In this document: piece by piece, positions 26,626-45,595 of the stretch
Layout: each line of letters opens with the position of its first letter
Numbering within the stretch: position 1 is the stretch's first letter
Source: an uncultured Candidatus Saccharibacteria bacterium
GTDB taxonomy: Bacteria; Patescibacteriota; Minisyncoccia; Minisyncoccales; Staskawiczbacteraceae
Length of the DNA stretch: 58,994 bases
Assembly (NCBI GenBank): GCA_964599285.1
Contig: CAZREI010000004.1
Location: 1-58,994, forward strand
Direction of reading: 5' to 3'
Notes under the pieces: model-generated
The model's database searches: none
Told to the model about the DNA's origin: nothing
Seen by the model: only the letters and a program-made list of their open reading frames with translations
Made by a program: the position numbers and the translations under genes

Positions 26626-26697
26626 TGCGGGGTCGTCTAACGGTCGGACGTCGGTCTTTGGAACCGCACAATCTAGGTTCGAATCCTAGCCCCGCAG
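26626..26697 (+). tRNA. tRNA-Gln(TTG)
   Basis: Acceptor TGCGGGG/CCCCGCA, anticodon loop CT-TTG-GA, T arm CTAGG-TTCGAAT-CCTAG; CCA not encoded. Confidence 0.92.
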
Positions 26698-26918
26698 CAG
26701 CCCTATGCTAAGTCAAGTGACTAGGTCCCCTCGACTATTTTGGTGAAAAAGTTCGATAAAAAATTCCCTCACGGGAATGAGATTCGAACGTAAAACCATA
26801 GTAGTGAGGCGACCAAGAAGCATAGAGAACTATTCCTTAGTTGGCAAACCGGTTGAGTTACCGTATCCAGAACAAAAATTCGCCCAAAAGGCGAATTTTT
26901 GTTAGCATTATAAAACAT

Positions 26919-28295: not shown

Positions 28296-29609
28296 TCACT
28301 CTAGGATAATCTTTTTGTCTTTTAGCGCCAGTTTGCTTTTCAGGAAGAATAGTAGTTCGCGTTTTTCAACAAGGGTTCCTTCTCTGAGCAAGTACTTGGC
28401 ATAATTTCGTATATCTATTTCAGAATTATTAGCCTCCTTTTTATGGCCTAGCACCCCGATTCTGAATTTATTAAAGCGGGCGATTTCTTGCTCAATCCTA
28501 TTTCTTACACCCAGCTCATCCAGGTTAATTTTATCCATCAGGTCTATTAATTCTGTTATCAGGCTCGGCTCATTGATCATCGGATTTTTACAGTCGATAT
28601 TTCTGGCCTTAGTGCAGAAATAGTAGACGTGCCGATTCACTCCGCCATCCTTGAGCTTTTTGAATTTCTCATCAGCCGATATGCCCGAGCCACAGTAGCC
28701 ACACTTAATCAGCTTGGTGAAGGCAAATTCTTTAGATTCAGTTTTCGGCACAAAGTTCTCGCTCAGAGTAGTTTGGACTTTATCAAATAATACCTTATCT
28801 ATTATCGGTGTATGCTTACCGGTGTACCAGTTTCCGCTACCGACAGGAAATTCAAATTCTCCATAATAGAAACTGTTTCTTAAGATGAGGTAGACATTGC
28901 CCAGTACCAAAGGTTTACCGCTTTTGGTTTTAAACCCTATCTCATTGAGCCATCGGAAAAGTTTTCTACCCGACCACTGTTCATTGGCTACTTTTTCAAA
29001 CATCTGCTTAATTATGGGAGCCCGTTTGGGATCCAGCCTGCACTGGCATTTCTTGTCCACATGCTTTTCGTTAAGGTAGCCAGTAGGGGCCACTCCGGGG
29101 CGATAACCCATTTCGCAGCGTGTCTTGAGTCCGCGTTTTACGTTGACTGCCTTATTATCATTTTCCAGCTTGGCTTGGCTACCCAGAATCATAAGCAGGA
29201 ACTTTTCATTTGGATTATTGGTAAACCGTTGCCCGTAAGTCCTTATTTCAATCAAGAGTTTCTGGTCCATTAAATCCACCACGGATCCCAGGTCGCCAGC
29301 ATTGCGGCTCAATCGGTCCGGCGCCCATGTTAGAATGGCATTGTATTTTCCTTCCCTAATTTCATTGATCATTTCATTGAATACCGCCCGCTGGCCAACT
29401 TCCTTGGAGGAGTGAGATTCTCGTTTAATATCAATGATTTTTAGATTCTCTTTTTCGGCCAATACCATCATTTCTTTAATTTGTGAGTCAATGGATAAGA
29501 CCTGCTTGTCTTCGGCCTCGGTGGATTTCCTGGCATAAAGGCAGTATTTGAGGGTAGGCGCCATTACGGGAGGGGACGAGGTTCTACTCACTTGTGTTGC
29601 TTGTGTCAT
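28296..29609 (-). CDS. Large serine recombinase (resolvase, recombinase and zinc-ribbon domains)
   Basis: YCLYARKS catalytic Ser, TWAPDRLSRN, PTGY and IKCGYCGS...YYFC. Confidence 0.92.
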   Translation of the reverse strand: MTQATQVSRTSSPPVMAPTLKYCLYARKSTEAEDKQVLSIDSQIKEMMVLAEKENLKIIDIKRESHSSKEVGQRAVFNEMINEIREGKYNAILTWAPDRLSRNAGDLGSVVDLMDQKLLIEIRTYGQRFTNNPNEKFLLMILGSQAKLENDNKAVNVKRGLKTRCEMGYRPGVAPTGYLNEKHVDKKCQCRLDPKRAPIIKQMFEKVANEQWSGRKLFRWLNEIGFKTKSGKPLVLGNVYLILRNSFYYGEFEFPVGSGNWYTGKHTPIIDKVLFDKVQTTLSENFVPKTESKEFAFTKLIKCGYCGSGISADEKFKKLKDGGVNRHVYYFCTKARNIDCKNPMINEPSLITELIDLMDKINLDELGVRNRIEQEIARFNKFRIGVLGHKKEANNSEIDIRNYAKYLLREGTLVEKRELLFFLKSKLALKDKKIILE

Positions 29610-29783: not shown

Positions 29784-32700
29784 ATGGAAATTAAGTCAAA
29801 ATTTGAGTTTTTTCGCAGAAATAACCTTGTTTATCTCGATAGCGCAGCCACTACACAAGTACCTGATATTGTGGTCAGAGAAGTGGAGCGAGTTTTAAAT
29901 TACCGTGGAAATCCAGGTCGTAGCGCTCACATAATCGCCAGAAAAGCTGAAGAATGGGTAGCTGAAGCAAGAGAAAATATTGCTAAGTTTATCGGAGCCG
30001 GTGCCAATGAAATTGTTTTTACAAATAATGCTACCGATTCAATTAATCTTGCTGTTGACGCAATTGCTGATCATATAAAAAGTGGTGATGAAATTATTAT
30101 TGGAATTTCAGAGCATCACTCAAATATGCTTCCGTATTTGAAGCTAGTAAAACGGGGAGCAAAGATAAAAACGGTTGGCCTCAAAGACGGAATTATTTCT
30201 CCTGAAGAAATTAAATCTGTATTGAGTAAAAAGACAAAGGTGGTTGCAGTTGGCCACTGCTCTAATGTTTTGGGAAATATTAACGACGTACAAACCATCG
30301 GTTCAGTCGTTAAGGAAAAAAATAAAGATATTTTTTATATCATTGATGGAACTCAAGCGGTCGCTCATTTGCCGGTCAACGTGAAACCGATAAGAGCTGA
30401 CTTCTATGCTTTTTCTGGACATAAAATGTACGGACCGGATGGCGTGGGCGTGTTATATGCCTCGGATCATATTCATCATTTTCTTTCACCGGTACGCGCC
30501 GGTGGCGGAACGGTGAAAAATGTTGCTATCACATTTCAGAAAGAAGGAGATATTATTTCTCCGGATTATTTTCAGTCGTTACTTATGCTGGAAGGCGGAA
30601 CATCGAATACTTCAAATATCGTGGGGCTATCCAAAGCCGTCAATTTTATCCGGTCAGTTGGTTTTGATCAAATTCGCCATCATGATTTGCAGCTAATCTC
30701 AAAGTTACGTGAAGCGTTGAAGCAATTTGAGGAAATAGTAATATTTGGCCCTACGGAAGCAAAGAATAAGATTGGCCTTTTATCATTTGGCTTAAAAGAA
30801 TACAGCACCCAAGAACTAGGAGATTATCTGGGACGGCAAAAAATATGTATCCGCTACGGCGCTCATTGTGCATTTCCTTTAGCAGAACATTTAGGCCAAG
30901 AAAGTTTACGAGTAAGCTTTGGCGCTTATAATACTGAAGAAGATATTGATCAGATTGTTGGCGAAATAAAGTTTTTTCTAGACAAGAAAAAGGGGTTAAT
31001 TAAAAATCCAAATCTTGAACCCTTGCGTTCAAAGATTTATTATCGTAACACCCACATCGTAAATTCCGCTGCATCAATTATTGAGAAGGTAAAACAGGGA
31101 CTCTATAGCCCACAAGATACCGAAATTGTGGTAATGGGAGGGCACTTTCTTGGCATTCCCGATATGCAAGAGAATAGATTTTGGCCAAGTATTACAGGAC
31201 TGCTTCCTGAGCGTCTATACGGCTTAATGGACGAATTTGGTATGACCAGTTTTCCTCTTTTCACCTGGGAAGTTTCATGCAAGATAGTTTCAGAGCTTCA
31301 AAAAGCTGGATATCAAGCAAAGCTCTCCATTATCGTCAACGATACGACCGGTATAAATGAACTTCGTCTTTCAAAAATAAATGCAAATGGAAAAACGGCG
31401 GAAACGTACCGTGATGAGCTACTCAATTCTTTTATGGAAGACGATATTCCGAAAAGGTATTTGGAGATATTGAAAAAATATAAGCTTGGCAAAAAAGATA
31501 TCATCAAAAATGCTGCTAAATTTTATTTTAGGGAAACGCTTTTAAGGGCGAACTTCAAAAAGTTTATAAGCAACAATAAAAGATTTTTTTCTGGCGTTAT
31601 TGATTATACGGCTGAGACAGACGACAATATTGATCTCTCGATAAATATATTAGATAACCAGCAGATTAAAACGTGCAATATCGAAACGTTCCATTCGAAA
31701 ACGGGTGGTAAGTTCTGCGTTATTGAGTTGTGTCAATTCATTGCCGAGTTATTCGGCAAAGCCCCTGAAGTGAAATTTGGGTACCTATCTGAAAAAGTTA
31801 ATAAACCCAAAATAAAGTCAAAACACAAGGTATTGATCGCCTTAACGCCCGCCATGTGCGATAACGCAGTAACCCGTTCAGCTGAATTATACGCAAAACT
31901 TTTTCTGCAAGAAAAAGGAGAAGGCTCTTTCAAGTTTTTTAATATTCCCTTGGGACCTAATGCCCAAAGAAATCTCGCTATTGGCACAGAACTTACCTAT
32001 GTTTCAGATAAAGACAATCTGGAAATTCTTGACGTTGATTCAGAGCCAGCTTTTCCCGAATTATGGAAATTATGCGAGTACAAGTTACTATACGACCCCA
32101 AGTCCTACGCAGAAGATATGAAAAACCTTTTTGAAAAAATAGGAATCGGTAAGCAATCTGGCATCCTTGATACCTGCGTGGGGCCTGGATTTTTTGATAC
32201 GGAGTTACTGAAAGAGGGATATCATATTACAACCGCAGATAAAAATCCGAATATGATTGTTCCGTTTCAGAATGCACTGCGCGAACTTGGGATTGATCAT
32301 GCGACAACCATATCCGCATGGCTTGATCTGCCCAAACACTTTCAGAAAGAATCGTTTGATTTACTATTGAACCGCGGCAATAGTTTTATTTACGCAGCGG
32401 GCGGATGGAATGAAATGATCGCAATAGACAAAAACGAATCTCTTGCCAAATTCAAGGAGACGCTGGAAGTGTATTACGACTTGCTCAAGCCAGGAGGATA
32501 TCTTTATATTGATAAATTCAGAGATTCTGAAATACCAGATAAAAAAGTGGTTGCTCGGCTGAATATTGAAAACGGAGAAGAGCAAAAAGATATTGTTTTC
32601 TATGTTGAACGAAAACCTGAAGAGAATGTAAGATTTGCCCAAATGTTGCTTCGGGACGAAAGTGGAGAGGAAAGGGGTTTGCCAAACGTAGCATATGACT

Positions 32701-32807
32701 TAAGCGAAGACGAGATGGAAAATCTTTTAAAGGAAATTGGCTTTAAATCCCAGAAATTATCCATAAAATCTGAAAGGCATTTTGTGGTCTGGCTTGCACA
32801 AAAATAA
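29784..32807 (+). CDS. Fusion: SufS-like PLP cysteine desulfurase, unknown domain and class I SAM methyltransferase
   Basis: YLDSAATTQ, DGTQAVAH, FSGHKMYGP (PLP Lys) and RYGAHCA (SufS-type Cys); C-terminal LDTCVGPG and NRGNSFIY. Confidence 0.85.
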   Translation: MEIKSKFEFFRRNNLVYLDSAATTQVPDIVVREVERVLNYRGNPGRSAHIIARKAEEWVAEARENIAKFIGAGANEIVFTNNATDSINLAVDAIADHIKSGDEIIIGISEHHSNMLPYLKLVKRGAKIKTVGLKDGIISPEEIKSVLSKKTKVVAVGHCSNVLGNINDVQTIGSVVKEKNKDIFYIIDGTQAVAHLPVNVKPIRADFYAFSGHKMYGPDGVGVLYASDHIHHFLSPVRAGGGTVKNVAITFQKEGDIISPDYFQSLLMLEGGTSNTSNIVGLSKAVNFIRSVGFDQIRHHDLQLISKLREALKQFEEIVIFGPTEAKNKIGLLSFGLKEYSTQELGDYLGRQKICIRYGAHCAFPLAEHLGQESLRVSFGAYNTEEDIDQIVGEIKFFLDKKKGLIKNPNLEPLRSKIYYRNTHIVNSAASIIEKVKQGLYSPQDTEIVVMGGHFLGIPDMQENRFWPSITGLLPERLYGLMDEFGMTSFPLFTWEVSCKIVSELQKAGYQAKLSIIVNDTTGINELRLSKINANGKTAETYRDELLNSFMEDDIPKRYLEILKKYKLGKKDIIKNAAKFYFRETLLRANFKKFISNNKRFFSGVIDYTAETDDNIDLSINILDNQQIKTCNIETFHSKTGGKFCVIELCQFIAELFGKAPEVKFGYLSEKVNKPKIKSKHKVLIALTPAMCDNAVTRSAELYAKLFLQEKGEGSFKFFNIPLGPNAQRNLAIGTELTYVSDKDNLEILDVDSEPAFPELWKLCEYKLLYDPKSYAEDMKNLFEKIGIGKQSGILDTCVGPGFFDTELLKEGYHITTADKNPNMIVPFQNALRELGIDHATTISAWLDLPKHFQKESFDLLLNRGNSFIYAAGGWNEMIAIDKNESLAKFKETLEVYYDLLKPGGYLYIDKFRDSEIPDKKVVARLNIENGEEQKDIVFYVERKPEENVRFAQMLLRDESGEERGLPNVAYDLSEDEMENLLKEIGFKSQKLSIKSERHFVVWLAQK

Positions 32808-33592
32808 TGAAAACTTTTCAATTTGACCACGAACCAACCTTTGCTGAATTATGGGATGCTTGCGTCTACAACCTTCTCTACCAAGCCCAGGATTATAAGA
32901 AAGATATCGTAGAATTATTTAGTAAGATCGGCATAGACAAAAAGTCAAAAATAATTGATGTTTCGGCGGGCGGCGGGTTTCCTGCCCTTGAACTAATCAA
33001 GGATGGATATGACATTGTTTGCTCTGATGGTTTTGATGACGAAGTAGAACTCTTTAACAGGAAGGCAAAACAAGAAAAGGTTAGTTCACGTTGTATAAAA
33101 GTATTATGGAAGGAGCTGCCAGAACATTTTTCCAGTAATTCTTTTGATTTTCTTTTTTGTCGAGGTAACTCGTTTATTTACGCAGACGGCGGATGGAATA
33201 CGCCCATAAAAGTTGATACGATAGAAGTAATGAATAATTACCAAAACACGTTGAACATATTTTATGACCTGCTTCAACCAGGCGGTTGGATATATGTTGA
33301 TAAATTTAAGGATAACGAAACCACTCATCAGGAAAAAGTTGGCGAAGTAAAAGTGAACAATGAAAATTCAGAAGATTTAATTTTTTGGACGCAGCGATTT
33401 CCAGAAAAGAAAATGCGACAAGCGTCGATGATAAGGAAAGAAAATGACCATGAAAAGAAAATCCCCAATATTTCCTATGATTTATCTTCTGTTGAGTTGG
33501 AAGGTTTATTGGGGAAAGCTGGCCTTAGGAATATTCAAAAAATAGATTTACCTAGCGAGAAAACTTTTGATATTTGGATTGCTCAGAAATAA
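32807..33592 (+). CDS. Class I SAM methyltransferase, paralog of the upstream C-terminal domain
   Basis: IDVSAGGG and CRGNSFIYADGGWN; aligns by eye with the C-terminus of the 1007 aa protein. Confidence 0.85.
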   Translation: MKTFQFDHEPTFAELWDACVYNLLYQAQDYKKDIVELFSKIGIDKKSKIIDVSAGGGFPALELIKDGYDIVCSDGFDDEVELFNRKAKQEKVSSRCIKVLWKELPEHFSSNSFDFLFCRGNSFIYADGGWNTPIKVDTIEVMNNYQNTLNIFYDLLQPGGWIYVDKFKDNETTHQEKVGEVKVNNENSEDLIFWTQRFPEKKMRQASMIRKENDHEKKIPNISYDLSSVELEGLLGKAGLRNIQKIDLPSEKTFDIWIAQK

Positions 33593-33612: not shown

Positions 33613-35595
33613 ATGAAAAATATATTTACCAAAACTAAAATAGCAACAAAATTCGGAGATTTTGATATCCGAGTTTATGCGGATGTACAAGGCAAAGAAA
33701 CAGTCGTGCTTTCGACTGAAAAGTTAGATACATCTGTTCCCGTGCTCGTCAGAATACACAGTGAGTGTATGACCGGCGATACCTTTGGTAGTTTACAGTG
33801 CGATTGTGGCGAACAACTTGATAAGTCTTTAGAGAAAATCACTGAAAGTAAAAATGGCGTTCTTGTTTATCTACGCCAGGAAGGTCGCGGAATTGGATTG
33901 TTTGAAAAAATAAAAAGTTACCAACTTCAAGATAAGGGGTATGATACCTTTGAAGCAAACCTTTTGCTAGGACACCGTCCTGACGAACGAACCTATGAAA
34001 AGGCAAAAATAGCTCTTAGCGATCTAGGAGCAAGCCGTATCCGTTTGTTGACCAACAATCCATCAAAAGTGTCTGAAATGGCAAAACTTGGCATTGAAGT
34101 GGTAGAACGTGTCCCCTTAATAATAAAGTCAAACAAATATAATCAAGATTACTTTGTATCAAAGCGTGATAAATTCAAACATTTTTTTAGCACAGAGGTT
34201 AGTTATTATTTTTATCAATTTCACGCTGTAACTCCGGAACAAGTTGAACAGATCGGCGAATTCTTAAAAGACAAAAAGCGTGACCCTCTTCTAAAAATTT
34301 GTGTTGGTGTTGCCGCGGATCATTCTGTAATAGACAGTACAGAAAAAATTATTCAAATAGAGAGTATTTTTCGCGCTTGCGATCTTTATGAGGGCTTTGT
34401 TCCAATATTACATTTTTCTTTTAGGAACTCGCCCGACCCATTAAAAGATATTCGGATTATAAAGAAGAATTTACCGTTCGTTAAGTACATCCAAACAAAT
34501 GATATTCCATCACCAGAATTGGAGACAATAAAACTTGCATGCCGGTCTTTTCTCGCTGATATCCCACTATCAGATAAAAACTTTGATTTAGTCAACGATG
34601 TCAGTTTTAGACGAGCAATTACAAAGTATAAAGCATTCATACTTTTAGATAATAGCAAAGGCACAGGAATACGTGAGGCAAAAGAATCTTTAATGAAAAA
34701 AATAGATGTTTTGCTCAAGTATGGCTTGAACGATATTGCAATTTTTGGTGGATTTGGACCAGATGATCTCGATACATATTTTGAACTTCGTCGTTATTAC
34801 AAAATCAATTTTTCAATTGACGCTGAGACAAAACTCAAAACTAACGGCCAAATCGACATCGAAAAAACGAAACTGTATCTATCGCAACTCATTAGGTTTA
34901 GTGATCCCAAAGAAGCAGGCATCGAACAGACGAGAACATTCTTGCAACAAAGCAAACATACTAATTGGGATAAGGCTACAATCGAAGGCAAAGAATTTTC
35001 AATACACCCTGCGGTGTTTCATCCAGGTTCTTTTCCTTCGACCATATGGTATGCTGTTGCTGTCCGCGAACAAGTAAAAGGACAAGGAGATTTTTGTGAA
35101 GTAGGATGTGGTGCAGGAGTGGTAAGTTGCTTGGTCGCCATTGATAATCCCAACATTCAAGTTGTCGCAACCGACATAAATCCTTTTGCCAGCGAGAATA
35201 CGAAACTCAATGCTGATAAACTTGGTGTTGGCGATAGAGTTGAGGTTACCACCGGAGATGTTCTCGACGGCATACCAAGTGATCGTAAATTTGACTCAAT
35301 ATTCTGGTCATTGCCTTTTGGATTTCTTGATCCTGGAGCACCCGTAACATTAGAAGAAATGCAGGTATTTGACCCTGGATATAAAGCAACGCGAAAGTTT
35401 TTGAACGATGCTAAAAAGTTTTTAAAACCAAACGGGCAATTGCTCATTGGATTTTCTTCAGATTTAGGACACGAGGAACTGCTTGAGGAATTAGCAAAAG
35501 AAGCCGGTATTAAAATAGAAAAAGTTAAAGAGCATGAAATGCAAGAGAAAGACACCCTAAAATTTGAACTTCTTCGTGGGGTTTATTTGAGGTAA
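33613..35595 (+). CDS. Fusion: GTP cyclohydrolase II, TrpF-like barrel and HemK-like methyltransferase
   Basis: VRIHSECMTGDTFGSLQCDCGEQL, RQEGRGIGL, DERTY and LLTNNP; middle LLDNSKGTG/FGGFGP/IDAETKL; C-terminal EVGCGAG, ATDINP and FWSLPFG. Confidence 0.85.
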   Translation: MKNIFTKTKIATKFGDFDIRVYADVQGKETVVLSTEKLDTSVPVLVRIHSECMTGDTFGSLQCDCGEQLDKSLEKITESKNGVLVYLRQEGRGIGLFEKIKSYQLQDKGYDTFEANLLLGHRPDERTYEKAKIALSDLGASRIRLLTNNPSKVSEMAKLGIEVVERVPLIIKSNKYNQDYFVSKRDKFKHFFSTEVSYYFYQFHAVTPEQVEQIGEFLKDKKRDPLLKICVGVAADHSVIDSTEKIIQIESIFRACDLYEGFVPILHFSFRNSPDPLKDIRIIKKNLPFVKYIQTNDIPSPELETIKLACRSFLADIPLSDKNFDLVNDVSFRRAITKYKAFILLDNSKGTGIREAKESLMKKIDVLLKYGLNDIAIFGGFGPDDLDTYFELRRYYKINFSIDAETKLKTNGQIDIEKTKLYLSQLIRFSDPKEAGIEQTRTFLQQSKHTNWDKATIEGKEFSIHPAVFHPGSFPSTIWYAVAVREQVKGQGDFCEVGCGAGVVSCLVAIDNPNIQVVATDINPFASENTKLNADKLGVGDRVEVTTGDVLDGIPSDRKFDSIFWSLPFGFLDPGAPVTLEEMQVFDPGYKATRKFLNDAKKFLKPNGQLLIGFSSDLGHEELLEELAKEAGIKIEKVKEHEMQEKDTLKFELLRGVYLR

Positions 35596-36301: not shown

Positions 36302-36416
36302 CCGCAGTTCATAACCACACATCTGCGTAATAAAAGTGTGGATTACATAAGGCCGAACGGATTCGTCCCTCGGCCTCACTTCAGAGGAATTTTCAAAAGA
36401 AGATTTTTCTGAAGTG
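36302..36416 (+). repeat. Structured intergenic element, copy A (three hairpins)
   Basis: CGCAG/CTGCG, AGGCCGA/TCGGCCT and CACTTCAGA/TCTGAAGTG stems. Confidence 0.9.
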
Positions 36417-36490
36417 AACGATTGTACATTCAACCCCGATTTTCGGGCGGCAACCTCGGAGGCCGTAATTCCGAAACAAGGAGATTCGCA

Positions 36491-36724
36491 ATGACTCAAA
36501 TGACTAGTTTGGAATTCAATGCAGTAATAAGTGCGTGGGGCGTGAATGATGAGCGCAAGCTCAAGGCTATTGGACTTTTAATGAACCGTATAAAACCACA
36601 TGAAGTCCTTCGGCTTGTTGATAAAATGGGGCTTGCCGAAAACGCAGTGCGAAAAGCTCAGATTGAGCTGGAGCGAACCAACAAAGCTTTCGATGATTTC
36701 TGTAATGAGAATGCCCGTGGGTAA
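36491..36724 (+). CDS. Small hypothetical protein (array ORF2)
   Basis: AAGGAG SD before ATG at 36491. Confidence 0.65.
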   Translation: MTQMTSLEFNAVISAWGVNDERKLKAIGLLMNRIKPHEVLRLVDKMGLAENAVRKAQIELERTNKAFDDFCNENARG

Positions 36725-36771
36725 AGAAAAAAGGTTAAGGGAGAATACCTGCGTTAAAACTTCTCTCGCTA

Positions 36772-36831
36772 AGGCAAACTCCGGTTTGCCTCACTTCAGA
36801 GGAATTTATCAAGATAGATTTTTCTGAAGTG
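36772..36831 (+). repeat. Structured intergenic element, copy B (two hairpins)
   Basis: AGGCAAAC/GTTTGCCT and CACTTCAGA/TCTGAAGTG. Confidence 0.85.
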
Positions 36832-36869
36832 TTGATGGAAGTTTTCACCGTTCTTTAAAGGAGAAGGTC

Positions 36870-37112
36870 ATGAAGTGCCGAGTAAATCCTTATCCTTCGG
36901 GTGAAGGTTGGCTCCAGCTGGAGCAGTTTGAGATCATTCTGGTCCCCCAAAATAAAAGGGATCAGCGTGTTCTCTCTGCTATGAAGACCGCCAAGGCTTT
37001 TCTCACCCATGACTCGGGAGACGATGGCACCGTCAAGAGTGCCAGAGTTCTAGTGCATGGAAAGCACTATGAACGCGTCATGGCCCGGACAAGAGCCAAG
37101 CGCGGTTACTAA
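36870..37112 (+). CDS. Small hypothetical protein (array ORF3)
   Basis: AAAGGAG SD. Confidence 0.65.
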   Translation: MKCRVNPYPSGEGWLQLEQFEIILVPQNKRDQRVLSAMKTAKAFLTHDSGDDGTVKSARVLVHGKHYERVMARTRAKRGY

Positions 37113-37137
37113 AAAAGAGTGTCAACTCTCTAACTGA

Positions 37138-37249
37138 CCGCAGTTCACAAACCACACTGCGAAAACAAAAGTGGATTACATAAGGCCGAATGGATTAAAA
37201 ATTCGGCCTCACTTCAGAGGAATTTACCAGTGTAGATTTTTCTGAAGTG
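37138..37249 (+). repeat. Structured intergenic element, copy C
   Basis: Full three-hairpin copy. Confidence 0.9.
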
Positions 37250-37289
37250 GATGATTGACTGAACGAAATCTTAACTAGAGGAGACAGTG

Positions 37290-37541
37290 ATGAAGAAGCT
37301 CTTTCTTTGCGCGACCAGTGACCCGCTCGACCGTCGTTTCGGTGGCATGAAGCACATGGCGTGCTGGGCGGAAACTGCGGAGGAGGCCTGCGAGGAATTC
37401 CGTCGTGTGCGCCGTCCAAGGATGAAGTGGCAAGCGTACGCTGTGGAGATTACGGATGAGCTGAAGCAACAGTACCCTTGGATAAAGGGTATCCCCGTTA
37501 GTGTTCCGGGAAGGAAATTCGGGGACGTGCGGATAACCTAG
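37290..37541 (+). CDS. Small hypothetical protein (array ORF4)
   Basis: AGAGGAG SD. Confidence 0.65.
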   Translation: MKKLFLCATSDPLDRRFGGMKHMACWAETAEEACEEFRRVRRPRMKWQAYAVEITDELKQQYPWIKGIPVSVPGRKFGDVRIT

Positions 37542-37788
37542 CGCACGGAAAACCCGCCACGGATGGCGGACTAGGATAATGGGGAGACTCAATCAGTTTC
37601 CCCTCCATATATGAGTTTTGAAAAAGTTTCAAGACTGATACATGGATTAGCTCTTTATTAAAAAATCACAGTCATAGCTATAAGTTTTTATTTTAAAAGA
37701 TGAAAGTTTATAGCTGTGACTGAAGGCATTTCGCCAACGGGCAGTCGGTTTCTTGGATATCACAACAACCAAGCAGAGGAGATTTACT

Positions 37789-38007
37789 ATGGCAACCGTA
37801 AACATCCCCAAAGCAACAGTCACTCTTACGGACCCGCAGATTGGTATCTTGCTCCAGATGATCAAATACTGGAGGGAAACAGAAGTGGCGTTTGAGGCAG
37901 TGGAGGAGAAGCCATGGCTCAAACCCAAAAACCCAATCAATTTAAATCCTACTGATTTGGCAGAGGTCGAGAAGATCTTGATGAAGGCCATGTGGGATTG
38001 TGGTTGA
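37789..38007 (+). CDS. Small hypothetical protein (array ORF5)
   Basis: AGAGGAG SD before ATG at 37789. Confidence 0.6.
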   Translation: MATVNIPKATVTLTDPQIGILLQMIKYWRETEVAFEAVEEKPWLKPKNPINLNPTDLAEVEKILMKAMWDCG

Positions 38008-38098
38008 TGTGGGGCCGTCAGGTACCTAGCAAGCACCGCACGGTGCACCTGGCGAAAGTGAGGCAATTCGTGATGACGACGAAACCTCACAGCAATCA

Positions 38099-38161
38099 AG
38101 GACGATTCGCAAGATTCGTCCCCACTTCAGAGCAGTTTTCAATGAAGACTTTTCTGAAATG
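38099..38161 (+). repeat. Structured intergenic element, copy D (diverged)
   Basis: GGACGA/TCGTCC and CACTTCAGA/TCTGAAATG. Confidence 0.75.
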
Positions 38162-38239
38162 TTGACGGAAATTACAAGCTCTTTTCTTCCCATATCGGGC
38201 GGCCTCAATGGTGGCCGAAATCTCTTGAAAGGAGATACC

Positions 38240-38845
38240 ATGAACAATCTGTTGATTCACCAGGGTTTCACCGTTCTGTCGAGTCTCTACACCCTCACCA
38301 TTTTCTTCCCTTTGAAAGCGAAGAAGGATAAGGGGTTGGATGATTTGGAAGCGTACCAACACTTCCCAATCACCGCGGGGAACGACGACGAGGCGATTCT
38401 CCGGGCCCAAGAAGCTACCACGGGTATAGATTTTGAGAGTAGCTATGGCTACCTCATTCATCGTACCGAGGACGCGATTCGGATTGTGTCCGTGAAGATT
38501 AAGATTCTCGGACTAGGTTACTGCCGTCACGGACATTATCCTGGTTCCTTCGTGGAGTCCTACTTCGTGAAGAACGAGGAGGAAGCCAGGGCACACTTCA
38601 AGGATGCTATTCGGGGTTGCGAACGCAATCACGGAATCTGTATTGACGCGAGTTTTCGCAACAATACTGCAGATTGTTACTTTCCTGGGCTTTGGCCAGG
38701 CGAGCCAATTCTGCAGAGCAGTCTTCCCTGCACAACTCCTGCTATTCAGCGCGGTAGTGCGGTACCTCCCCCAATTCTGCTTTCGGAGGAAAAGGGAATC
38801 CTTGTTAAGGAAACCCTTGAACTCTGGGACAAGCTCGCCAAGTAA
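38240..38845 (+). CDS. Hypothetical protein (array ORF6)
   Basis: AAAGGAG SD; contains YCRHGH and GCERNHG. Confidence 0.7.
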   Translation: MNNLLIHQGFTVLSSLYTLTIFFPLKAKKDKGLDDLEAYQHFPITAGNDDEAILRAQEATTGIDFESSYGYLIHRTEDAIRIVSVKIKILGLGYCRHGHYPGSFVESYFVKNEEEARAHFKDAIRGCERNHGICIDASFRNNTADCYFPGLWPGEPILQSSLPCTTPAIQRGSAVPPPILLSEEKGILVKETLELWDKLAK

Positions 38846-38851
38846 CCGCGC

Positions 38852-38968
38852 CCGCAGTTCACAAACCACACTGCGCAAATAAAAGTGGATAACATATATC
38901 AAGGCCGAACGGATTCGTCCCTCGGCCTCACTTCAGAGTAGTTTACCAGTGTAGACTTTTCTGAAGTG
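38852..38968 (+). repeat. Structured intergenic element, copy E
   Basis: Full three-hairpin copy with a compensatory AGTTT/AGACT change. Confidence 0.9.
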
Positions 38969-39001
38969 GCGAATGTATCTTTACAAAAGGAGGAGAAAAC
39001 C

Positions 39002-41917: not shown

Positions 41918-42317
41918 CATAGAACAAAAACCAGATTTCGCTATCCGAGTAATGGTTTTCAAAGACGGGAAAATTTTACTTGGAAAAAACAAAGGTAAGC
42001 ACGGCACGGGGAGTTATACCTTTGTCGGTGGTCATTTGGAGTATATGGAGTCCATTGAAGATTGTATCAAAAGGGAGTTATTGGAGGAGTGCGGTGTTGA
42101 AGTAGAAAATATAAAACTTCAATCAGTTTTAAGTGTTACAGATTACCCGCCATTTCACAGTATTCATATTACCTATACTGCCGATTGGAAAAGCGGAGAA
42201 CCGAAAGTATTAGAACCAGAAAAAATAGAAAGTTGGGATTGGTATAATTTGGATACTTTACCACAGCCGCTTTTTAAGAATGTGGAGCTGTCTTTAAAAG
42301 ACTATAAAAAATTATAA
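41907..42317 (+). CDS. NUDIX hydrolase
   Basis: GGHLEYMESIEDCIKRELLEECG Nudix box. Confidence 0.9.
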   Translation: MKNNIEQKPDFAIRVMVFKDGKILLGKNKGKHGTGSYTFVGGHLEYMESIEDCIKRELLEECGVEVENIKLQSVLSVTDYPPFHSIHITYTADWKSGEPKVLEPEKIESWDWYNLDTLPQPLFKNVELSLKDYKKL

Positions 42318-43009
42318 TGAAAAAACCAATTACAACTTTGTTTATGTTAATGTCCGTTGATGGGAAAATCTCCACAGGAGATAACGATTCAATGGATGTG
42401 GATAAAGATTTTCCTCAAATCACTGGCATAAAAGAGGGGCTAAACCAATACTATGAATTGGAAAAGCGGACTGATTTATTTTCTATGAATACAGGACGGG
42501 TCTTTGCTAAAATTGGTATCAATGAAAAAACTGATGAACCAATAAAGCTACCCGTTAGTTTTATTGTTATTGATAATGAACCGTATCTTAAAAACAAAGG
42601 CGTGGAGTATTTAGCTAAAAAAGCTAAAACATTATTTGTCGCCACAACAAATAAAAAACATCCTGCCTTTCAGTTAAAAAGGCAGATGCCGAATATAGAA
42701 GTATTGCTTTACGACAAAGATATTGATTTCGCAGATTTAATGGAAAAACTATCTAACTACGGCGTTGATAAACTCACTATTCAATGCGGTGGTACGCTAA
42801 ACTCAATTTTAATTAGGGCTGGATTATTAGATAGAGTTCAGCTGGTTGTCGCTCCTACCTTGATAGGTGGTAAAAATACTTCTACGATTATGGATGGTGA
42901 GTCTTTGCATAACGTGGACGAATTATCAAAAATAAAATCACTGGAATTAGTAAAAGCCGAACCACTTAAAAACTCTTATCTGTTATTAGAATATAAAGTT
43001 AATAATTAA
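42317..43009 (+). CDS. RibD C-terminal (DHFR-like) reductase-domain protein
   Basis: MSVDGKI, IQCGGTLNS, GLLDRVQLVVAPTLIGG. Confidence 0.85.
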   Translation: MKKPITTLFMLMSVDGKISTGDNDSMDVDKDFPQITGIKEGLNQYYELEKRTDLFSMNTGRVFAKIGINEKTDEPIKLPVSFIVIDNEPYLKNKGVEYLAKKAKTLFVATTNKKHPAFQLKRQMPNIEVLLYDKDIDFADLMEKLSNYGVDKLTIQCGGTLNSILIRAGLLDRVQLVVAPTLIGGKNTSTIMDGESLHNVDELSKIKSLELVKAEPLKNSYLLLEYKVNN

Positions 43010-44726: not shown

Positions 44727-45160
44727 ATTCAAGCGGAGGTTAGATAGCCATTAAACAAGTTCTAATATCACGCACGAAGCCCAGCATTTGAAAATTTAGG
44801 ATCTTTACGGTCCTAAATTTTAAAATCTGGGAGCTGTGATTCGAACCTCAAAAGGGGTCGGGAAAAAGGATTTTTCCCGTGGCGGAATTATTCAAACCGA
44901 GGGGTTTGAAGGAGGCCGAAGGCTGACTGGTTCAAGCGGAGCGGAATCCTAGTCCCGCAGCCAAGTTTATTGTGCGACAAAGTTTTTAAAATGCAAACAA
45001 GGTAGAGATATGTCTATACCCAAAGTGAAAATCGCAAGTTACCTCAGTCTACGGATCGAGGCTTTTTATTGTGCGACAGTTTACGGCTGCTGGCAGTTTT
45101 GTGATTTTCATCAATTATTTAGGATTTTTTGGGTACTATGGTATTAAACAATTAAAAAAT

Positions 45161-45595
45161 ATGGATAAAAAATCAAATCCTGTCGTGCACTTTGAGATGG
45201 GCTATACCGACAAAAATCGGATGTGCGCTTTTTATGAAACGGTTTTTGGTTGGAAAACAAATAACATGGGGCCGGAAATGGGAAACTATGTGGTGGCTCA
45301 TACTACGCAAACTGATAAGGAGGGCATGGTAAAAACTCCCGGCGCTATCAATGGAGGATTTTACCAGAAAACGGAAAATCCGTTATCCCATGCGCCGTCG
45401 GTGGTTATTGCGGTGGATGATATTTACGCTTCGGTAAAAGCAGTCCAGGCCGCTGGCGGCAAGATTTTAGGCGCCATGGACCAGGCGGGCAAACAATCCA
45501 TGGAGCCGCAGGATATTCCCGGAGTGGGTTTGTGGATTTCGTTTATGGATACCGAGGGCAATCGGGTTAGCATGCTTCAACCAAAGAAAATGTAA
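45161..45595 (+). CDS. VOC/glyoxalase-family protein
   Basis: VVHFEM, FYETVFGW, VQAAGGKI and FMDTEGN. Confidence 0.88.
   Translation: MDKKSNPVVHFEMGYTDKNRMCAFYETVFGWKTNNMGPEMGNYVVAHTTQTDKEGMVKTPGAINGGFYQKTENPLSHAPSVVIAVDDIYASVKAVQAAGGKILGAMDQAGKQSMEPQDIPGVGLWISFMDTEGNRVSMLQPKKM

Follow-up and report, generated by a model that had tools for sequence, protein, structure and literature searches.

Why should a GTP cyclohydrolase II (RibA) be joined in a single polypeptide to a second, barrel-shaped domain and to a methyltransferase, and what would such a protein make from GTP? The question is raised by one gene in a stretch of 58,994 nucleotides (the window; positions 1 to 58,994 of contig CAZREI010000004.1, forward strand, assembly GCA_964599285.1) from an uncultured Candidatus Saccharibacteria bacterium assigned to the Staskawiczbacteraceae (Patescibacteriota). 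The original prediction, made from the letters of the sequence, described the gene as a RibA fused to a TrpF-like barrel and a HemK-like methyltransferase, and proposed that the fusion could channel the RibA product towards a pterin-like ring. The analysis reported here confirms that the fused open reading frame is real and that it consists of these three parts (RibA, barrel, methyltransferase); it also leads us to lean towards a one-protein, three-step GTP pathway, argued from sequence, modelled structure and analogy, in which opening of GTP by the first domain would be followed by an Amadori rearrangement with pterin closure in the second and by N-methylation in the third. The gene and its parts are:

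33613 to 35595, + strand: whole fusion gene P0001, encoding a 660-aa RibA / PRAI-like barrel / methyltransferase protein.
33613 to 34197, + strand: GTP cyclohydrolase II (RibA) domain, residues 1-195, from PF00925, TIGR00505 and the alignment with 2bz0.
34177 to 34197, + strand: residues 189-195, a flexible linker that joins RibA to the barrel and is the sole segment of the full-length model with a predicted local distance difference test (pLDDT) value below 50.
34198 to 34908, + strand: (beta-alpha)8 barrel of the PRAI/TrpF superfamily, residues 196-432, from AlphaFold2 (AF2), Foldseek and hhalign.
34909 to 35592, + strand: class I S-adenosylmethionine (SAM) methyltransferase of the MTS/HemK2 type, residues 433-660, PF05175.

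The frame is open on the + strand from 33574 (TTG) or 33613 (ATG) to the stop at 35595. The ATG at 33613 is the likely start, because nearly all of the approximately 270 homologues collected share the architecture and a length of 655-670 aa and because the upstream gene ends at 33592; the original prediction had taken the same start. The full-length AF2 model is compact (pLDDT 87.6, predicted template-modelling score (pTM) 0.81), and a PDB search with it found no entry resembling the three-domain whole. Where the protein is named in public records, it is called 'GTP cyclohydrolase II' or a near variant; a literature search for the fusion itself found no description, the one relevant paper being that on RibA and TrpF of Chlamydia discussed below.

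The N-terminal domain is well supported, by profile matches and by its modelled fold, as an active GTP cyclohydrolase II. Pfam and NCBIfam place this enzyme at residues 4-194: PF00925 matches with an E-value of 5.5e-59 (198.9 bits, cut-off 23.3), TIGR00505 scores 228.5 bits and exceeds its equivalog-domain cut-off of 205.85, and NF001591 scores 236.3 bits against a cut-off of 148. Aligned with E. coli RibA (2bz0; E 3.4e-48), the domain has C52, C63, C65, Y103 and R126 at the positions of Cys54, Cys65, Cys67, Tyr105 and Arg128 of that enzyme; the zinc cysteines, the tyrosine and the arginine are invariant in 47 homologues, and the modelled domain superimposes on 2bz0 in Foldseek with a template-modelling (TM) score of 0.89 and a root mean square deviation of 2.1 Å. 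The RibA domain had been called intact, and the score above the TIGR00505 cut-off together with the retained site residues bears this out.

33757 to 33810, + strand: Zn-ligand cysteines C52, C63 and C65, within the RibA domain.
33880 to 33900, + strand: EGRGIGL motif of the RibA domain.

The identity of the middle domain decides what could become of the RibA product. On the combined profile and model evidence, this domain is a phosphate-binding-type triosephosphate isomerase (TIM) barrel and a real, divergent relative of TrpF, the phosphoribosylanthranilate isomerase (PRAI), but by its sequence it is not itself a TrpF. Modelled separately, the domain forms eight regular beta-alpha units with high confidence (pLDDT 86.6, pTM 0.83), and the top Foldseek match of this model in the PDB is the TrpF of T. 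thermophilus (1v5x, E 1e-8, TM 0.70 when normalised to the target), followed in the ranking by triosephosphate isomerases at a TM-score of about 0.5. The structural kinship with PRAI that had been suggested for the region is thus found in the model. At the sequence level, a search of the middle region against PDB sequences gave a chance match to pepV only, and the connection to TrpF emerges through intermediate proteins. An alignment of 33 diverse middle domains picked from the approximately 270 homologues (A1) was used for an exhaustive profile search of 1.84 billion representatives, which recovered proteins of three kinds: some with RibA and the barrel but no methyltransferase, some consisting of the barrel alone and, in the tail of the matches, some of about 250 aa (A2). 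A1 and A2 align in hhalign with a probability of 99.9 and an E-value of 3e-31; 35 of the 63 A2 members match the Pfam PRAI family (PF00697, best E 8.5e-12), A2 members also match the NCBIfam TrpF models below their cut-offs, and the A2 profile matches TrpF crystal structures (4aaj at E 2.7e-6, then 5lhf, 5lhe and 1lbm/1nsj). A sub-threshold match of the A1 profile to the quinolinate phosphoribosyltransferase family (QAPRTase, E 0.25) was considered as the identity of the barrel and abandoned, as Foldseek and the profile searches favoured TrpF.

The three motifs that had been said to parallel those of TrpF map, through these alignments, to the expected places: the strand bearing the catalytic Asp (beta6), the Gly-Gly loop (beta7) and beta8. 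Asp346 is invariant and aligns, via A2, with the general-acid Asp of TrpF (Asp126 in T. maritima); the GGFG of beta7 is likewise invariant; and the beta8 motif starts with SIDAETKL, in which Asp403 and Glu405 are invariant. Every invariant residue of the barrel lies at the C-terminal end of a strand, which is the catalytic face of a TIM barrel, and this face is lined by a set composed of His267 (beta3), Gln294 and Asn296 (beta4), Ser348 (beta6), and Asp403 and Glu405 (beta8). The domain thus shares with TrpF (PF00697; 1v5x, 4aaj, 1nsj) the (beta-alpha)8 fold, the LLD...G.G of beta6 with its Asp, the Gly-Gly loop of beta7 and the (V/I)D of beta8.

Residues 199-204 (YFYQFH), 227-236, 262-269 (His267) and 292-296 (Gln294, Asn296): barrel strands beta1 to beta4.
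Residues 314-319, 342-346 (Asp346), 375-378 followed by GGFG at 379-382, and 401-403 (SID-AE): barrel strands beta5 to beta8.
34642 to 34668, + strand: LLDNSKGTG, residues 344-352, end of beta6, equivalent to TrpF LLDxxxGGxG in the A2-mediated alignment.
34741 to 34770, + strand: IFGGFGPDDL, residues 377-386, beta7 and the Gly-Gly phosphate loop, equivalent to TrpF (L/V)AGGLxPxN.
34813 to 34866, + strand: SIDAETKLKTNGQIDIEK, residues 401-418, beta8 and the start of alpha8, equivalent to TrpF VDVSSGVE...KD..K.

The A2 proteins are stand-alone barrels with the same signature as the fusion barrel (His on beta3, QxN on beta4, DxS on beta6, GG on beta7 and SIDAE on beta8) and without the TrpF Cys, having a Thr at the corresponding position of beta1. 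Their contexts differ: one adjoins Pterin_4a, one BtpA (in an archaeal context) and one lies in a phage-like context. The members located here are:

L035, 8001 to 8774: A2 protein.
L103, 6001 to 6759: A2 protein.
L105, 6001 to 6714: A2 protein.

The association of the barrel with RibA was followed in 95 loci from genomes and metagenomes, 89 of which have the barrel. GTP cyclohydrolase II is fused to the barrel or encoded directly upstream of it in all 89, an obligatory linkage that fits an enzyme acting on the RibA product. The commonest form is the RibA-barrel-methyltransferase protein of about 660 aa (50 complete examples). Other arrangements are: a shorter RibA-barrel protein (436-510 aa) with the MTS methyltransferase encoded separately behind it (L029, L033, L036/37, L076, L099), the two reading frames abutting in L036/L037; a RibBA plus a stand-alone barrel (L042-44); a helix-turn-helix (HTH)-RibA-barrel fused to another methyltransferase, of a 'DVGGG' type (L030/31, 733 aa in all); a RibA-barrel with the same 'DVGGG' enzyme encoded by a gene of its own after it (L080-88); and a RibA-barrel followed by an enzyme of the Methyltransf_11/25 type (L084, L086). 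In most loci the barrel has a methyltransferase with it, of one or another of three unrelated types, and, because three unrelated families fill the same position, methylation of the RibA-barrel product looks like the conserved function on the evidence of gene content. In one further locus (L003) a small HTH gene lies directly upstream of the fusion gene.

L030, 7224 to 9425 (and likewise L031): XRE-type HTH_3, RibA and barrel domains with a non-homologous methyltransferase.

The C-terminal domain of the fusion is a class I methyltransferase (core at residues approximately 455-645) that matches PF05175 (MTS) with an E-value of 5.2e-14 (52.7 bits, cut-off 23), and its EVGCGAG and ATD motifs are invariant among homologues. 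The description of this domain as HemK-like holds for its fold but not for its family: motif IV is FW(S/N)xPF and not the NPPY of HemK, the HemK/PrmC model TIGR03534 scores 50.1 bits against a cut-off of 199.1 and TIGR00536 44.2 against 115.5, and the N-terminal helical domain of PrmC is missing. With HemK2/N6AMT1, PrmC, MTS, Asc-Orf2 and apramycin N-methyltransferase it shares the class I Rossmann fold, the MTS small-domain signature and an N-terminal beta-hairpin. Its nearest PDB entries by sequence are apramycin N-methyltransferase, Tgs1, RlmG and HemK, and by fold the carbamoyl N-methyltransferase Asc-Orf2 (9l4q) and HemK2/N6AMT1 (TM about 0.78). These nearest solved relatives act on amino or amide nitrogens, in some cases those of small molecules, and Tgs1 and RlmG are guanine-N2 methyltransferases; the P-F ending of motif IV is also that of enzymes whose methylation target is a planar amino or amide nitrogen. 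The substrate of the fusion methyltransferase is presumably a small molecule.

Residues 434-464: N-terminal helix and beta-hairpin of the methyltransferase.
35098 to 35118, + strand: SAM motif I, EVGCGAG.
35167 to 35181, + strand: acidic motif II, ATD.
35302 to 35325, + strand: motif IV, FWSLPFGF.

A precedent for the combination of the first two domains exists in Chlamydia trachomatis, whose purified TrpF turns the RibA product into dihydroneopterin monophosphate and whose RibA (CT731) and TrpF(CtL2) together replace FolE and FolQ (Adams et al. 2014, mBio 5:e01378-14; PMC4161248). There, as is proposed here, a GTP cyclohydrolase II delivers its product to a TrpF-type barrel for Amadori rearrangement and ring closure, with the same pair of families in the same order. 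In Chlamydia, however, the two enzymes are separate, the TrpF is a normal, promiscuous enzyme that keeps its PRA isomerase activity, and the product feeds FolB, FolK and FolP, whereas the fusion barrel belongs to a dedicated and highly divergent clade that has no catalytic Cys, is in every case joined to RibA or encoded beside it, and is coupled to a methyltransferase. A handover of the Chlamydia type was not found: PF00809 is absent in 11 of 11 carrier genomes, FolB and FolK not having been searched. The fusion is an uncharacterised variation on this known RibA and TrpF bypass.

In the pathway that we favour, the RibA domain would open the imidazole ring of GTP, releasing formate and pyrophosphate, and yield 2,5-diamino-6-(5-phospho-D-ribosylamino)pyrimidin-4(3H)-one (DARP). 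The barrel would hold the 5'-phosphate of this compound at the Gly-Gly loop of beta7 and the start of alpha8, Asp346 would open the ribosylamine for an Amadori rearrangement to the 1-deoxy-ribulosylamine, with a base other than Cys (the candidates being His204 at the end of beta1, His267 and Gln294/Asn296), and condensation of the 5-amino group with the 2'-keto group so formed would then close a 7,8-dihydropterin ring, for a product of the dihydroneopterin-3'-phosphate type. This second step is proposed because of the homology with TrpF, the obligatory linkage with RibA and the Chlamydia precedent. Finally, the MTS/HemK2-like domain would move the methyl group of SAM to a nitrogen of the product or of an intermediate, the likeliest site being the exocyclic 2-amino group, which resembles guanine N2, and the final product would probably be a methylated metabolite of the pteridine or pyrimidine kind, free and in many cases exported. 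The Amadori step, the ring closure, the methylated atom and the fate of the product are what we infer. The overall scheme resembles that of FolE (GTP cyclohydrolase I), which the original prediction had invoked, in its proposed opening of GTP, release of formate, Amadori rearrangement and dihydropterin closure; FolE, however, needs only a single active site, of the unrelated T-fold, for all of this and leaves the triphosphate in place, whereas the fusion would use two domains and form a monophosphate.

Several observations weigh against this pathway, most of them concerning the barrel. The TrpF-like character proposed for it stands at the level of superfamily (fold and profiles) and not of direct family membership: residues 195-455 have no direct match to Pfam or NCBIfam at E <= 0.1, PF00697 and the TrpF models included, and the Foldseek match with TrpF is moderate (TM-score 0.54 with the query as reference, 0.70 with the target). 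Beta1, YFYQFH (199-204), has no counterpart of the general-base Cys with which that strand ends in TrpF (Cys7 of the T. maritima enzyme), and the SSG of the beta8 phosphate loop of TrpF (DVSSG) is replaced by DAE in the invariant-bearing SIDAE; the domain is moreover about 40 residues longer than TrpF and has additional invariant residues (His, Gln, Asn, Ser and Glu). Since A1 and A2 have the His267/Gln294/Asn296/Ser348/Asp403/Glu405 set in common and the Cys/Asp mechanism of TrpF makes no use of it, the reaction of the barrel could differ from a plain Amadori rearrangement. Beyond the barrel, no pterin-using enzyme is linked to the fusion gene, the Pterin_4a homologue of the source genome lying on another contig in an uninformative context, and a reductase-like gene encoded near the fusion in the window could divert the RibA product to a ribityl compound. 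The genome has no riboflavin pathway in which this reductase would serve; its substrate could be the RibA product or else a dihydropterin, and no counterpart of the gene was seen in the other loci of the earlier clustering.

42317 to 43009: RibD_C-type pyrimidine reductase-like gene, on the same island as the fusion gene (TIGR00227 E 2.7e-21, TIGR01508 E 3.3e-20, both below cut-off).

The genes around the fusion were counted in the 91 loci represented in the fusion-gene cluster. The neighbours include major facilitator superfamily (MFS) transporters (12/91), serine recombinases (9/91), TrmB-type regulators (8/91), a second methyltransferase (7/91), vicinal oxygen chelate (VOC)/glyoxalase proteins (4/91) and EamA transporters (3/91); the frequent transporters suggest export of the product. 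A larger conserved cluster at the Gammaproteobacteria-type homologues (L094-97) was considered and set aside as mostly housekeeping (FtsH, 5'-3' exonuclease, an amino-acid-kinase-family protein, a RecF-like ATPase); its other genes encode a KsgA-like methyltransferase, TrmB regulators and an EamA transporter. The VOC/glyoxalase genes, which resemble bleomycin-resistance genes, lie within a few kb of the fusion, and that of the window is placed just beyond the right repeat of the island described below; they could encode a self-protection protein or be there by coincidence.

Window, 45071 to 45595: VOC/glyoxalase gene.
L002, 13509 to 13907: VOC/glyoxalase gene.
L010, 7708 to 8133: VOC/glyoxalase gene.
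L053, 9954 to 10352: VOC/glyoxalase gene.

The alternative that survives best is that the barrel carries out a different chemistry with its own His/Gln/Asn/Asp/Glu site, namely a hydrolysis, deamination, cyclisation or retro-aldol reaction, leading to a methylated diaminopyrimidine nucleotide or to a toxoflavin-like azapteridine. The loss of the catalytic Cys, the distinct invariant set common to the barrel and A2 and the lack of a direct PRAI match all speak for it, as do the four loci with VOC/glyoxalase genes near the fusion. The combination of a GTP cyclohydrolase II, an N-methyltransferase and an exporter also follows the logic of toxoflavin synthesis, a pathway composed of the GTP cyclohydrolase II ToxB, ToxE, ToxC/D, the N-methyltransferase ToxA and exporters, in which a RibA homologue working outside riboflavin synthesis contributes to a methylated heterocycle derived from GTP. 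However, no homologues of ToxC, ToxD or ToxE were seen beside the fusion gene, and the toxoflavin pathway has no TrpF-like barrel. The barrel, for its part, keeps invariant both the general-acid Asp of TrpF and the phosphate-binding Gly-Gly loop, the Amadori rearrangement is the sole chemistry known for the PRAI family, and an ordinary TrpF performs it on the same substrate (PMC4161248). A different chemistry is rather unlikely in our estimation, and the Amadori route remains the preferred reading of the barrel.

A second alternative concerns the biological role and is compatible with the enzymology preferred above: the gene would be a conflict gene of mobile elements, serving defence, counter-defence or host manipulation, by depletion of GTP or by means of a modified nucleotide or antimetabolite, against phages or the host cell of the symbiont. 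The genomic setting lends it some weight. In the source genome the fusion gene is, as judged from the sequence of its flanks, accessory cargo on an island of about 18.3 kb that is integrated at a tRNA-Gln gene and includes a serine recombinase:

26626 to 26698, + strand: tRNA-Gln(TTG), left boundary and attachment site of the island.
28296 to 29609, - strand: large serine recombinase with Resolvase, Recombinase and Zn_ribbon_recom domains, the island's only recombinase.
44944 to 44961, + strand: direct repeat of the 3' end of tRNA-Gln, right boundary (17 of 18 nucleotides match 26681-26698).

In several other loci the fusion is a single gene beside recombinases and XRE-type HTH genes, and in L030/31 it is fused to an HTH domain. 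The distribution is patchy: among species of the same genus 1 of 25 carries the fusion gene, and none of 35 further genera sampled from the same family and order has it. The tested carriers all have genomes of 0.6-2.0 Mb, the named ones being candidate phyla radiation (CPR) and Chlamydiae metagenome-assembled genomes (MAGs), and one locus adjoins a 5-hydroxymethyldeoxyuridine (5-hmdU) DNA kinase-like gene. Against such a role, the identity of the fusion as a known defence-system protein was tried and rejected, PADLOC finding generic methyltransferase similarity only (mad2), and the Chlamydiae- and Gammaproteobacteria-type loci are chromosomal and syntenic, with exporters and regulators that give them the look of small-molecule metabolism. 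We hold a conflict function to be improbable.

The genes that precede the fusion on the island do not point to an operon-level pathway. Positions 29784-33592 of the window, immediately before the fusion, encode a protein of 1007 aa composed of a SufS-like domain, a domain of about 380 aa and a methyltransferase (SufS-X-MT), and a glycine-sarcosine-methyltransferase-like protein of 261 aa; the central domain of about 380 aa has no sequence match in Pfam or the PDB. The two genes form an independent, conserved module, which has over 100 homologues among Patescibacteria and DPANN archaea and also accompanies serine recombinases; in L108 and L109 it occurs in the absence of the RibA fusion. A pathway shared by this module and the fusion was rejected, as the module occurs without the fusion and the neighbours of the fusion vary between loci; because the pair occurs elsewhere on its own, the apparent operon consists of two juxtaposed cargo modules. 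On the 3' side of the fusion, between small orphan reading frames (window 36329-38976), an element of about 96 nucleotides with a hairpin (CACTTCAGA...TCTGAAGTG) is repeated in 3-5 copies and has no match in Rfam at gathering thresholds. The locus with the 5-hmdU DNA kinase-like gene noted above lies in a TGA-recoded genome, in which the lone fusion gene adjoins this gene with its 5-hmdU DNA kinase helical domain (PF18723):

L005, 8260 to 9228: locus of the TGA-recoded genome.

The source genome (859 kb, 97.6% complete) has the fusion gene as its only GTP cyclohydrolase II, and searches of it found no dihydropteroate synthase (DHPS, Pterin_bind), lumazine (DMRL) synthase, 6-pyruvoyltetrahydropterin synthase (PTPS) or PRAI; PF00697 was absent genome-wide, the other trp genes not having been searched. 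DHPS (PF00809) and DMRL synthase were likewise not found in 10 other carrier genomes (0.6-2.0 Mb, five of them Chlamydiae-type MAGs), and the controls for the lumazine synthase search were positive in 14 of 14 genomes. Because the carriers have neither enzyme, the product of the RibA-barrel is, on genome content, a precursor of neither riboflavin nor folate. That the gene is merely the organism's RibA or a Chlamydia-style bypass of FolE/FolQ with incidental extra domains, as its public name, its fully intact RibA domain and the existence of that bypass (PMC4161248) might suggest, is very improbable given these absences and the methyltransferase, which neither pathway needs and which is nevertheless linked in most loci. 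A link with queuosine/preQ0 was also rejected: the source genome has no PTPS/QueD, and a single distant stand-alone barrel lies near a Vut_1 transporter. In genomes of the same genus without the fusion, weak RibA-like matches (27-30% identity, in frames of 240-300 aa) were seen in G001, G002, G015 and G017 (e.g. L041).

The named sources of the fusion are lineages of Patescibacteria, several Chlamydiae, and single MAGs labelled Bdellovibrionales, Flavobacteriaceae and Gammaproteobacteria; some of the single-MAG labels may be binning errors. We tentatively extend the favoured pathway to a broader proposal, possible though below the confidence that we place in the pathway itself: the triad would be a horizontally mobile pathway, usually in one gene, that converts GTP and SAM into an undescribed N-methylated pterin or ring-opened aminopyrimidine, which reduced-genome, host-dependent bacteria (CPR/Patescibacteria and environmental Chlamydiae) would export through adjacent MFS or EamA transporters as a signal, effector or antimetabolite acting on hosts or competitors, and the barrel would be a new, DARP-specific isomerase clade within the TrpF superfamily whose catalytic base is not Cys.

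The annotation of the source-named homologues as 'GTP cyclohydrolase II / riboflavin' is corrected by these results, and a barrel family so far without a name is defined, together with a new set of active-site residues. The hypothesis is directly testable, as it concerns one soluble protein, two substrates (GTP and SAM) and a product that is probably fluorescent. If it is true, the RibA and TrpF route to pterins, known so far only as a patch based on enzyme promiscuity in Chlamydia, would have been fixed by evolution as a dedicated and widespread enzyme, and the fusion would point to an unknown methylated compound derived from GTP and made by ultra-small symbionts and environmental chlamydiae. 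The biosynthetic capacity of these organisms is nearly nil, so the compounds that they still make, and often export, are likely to matter for their lifestyle.

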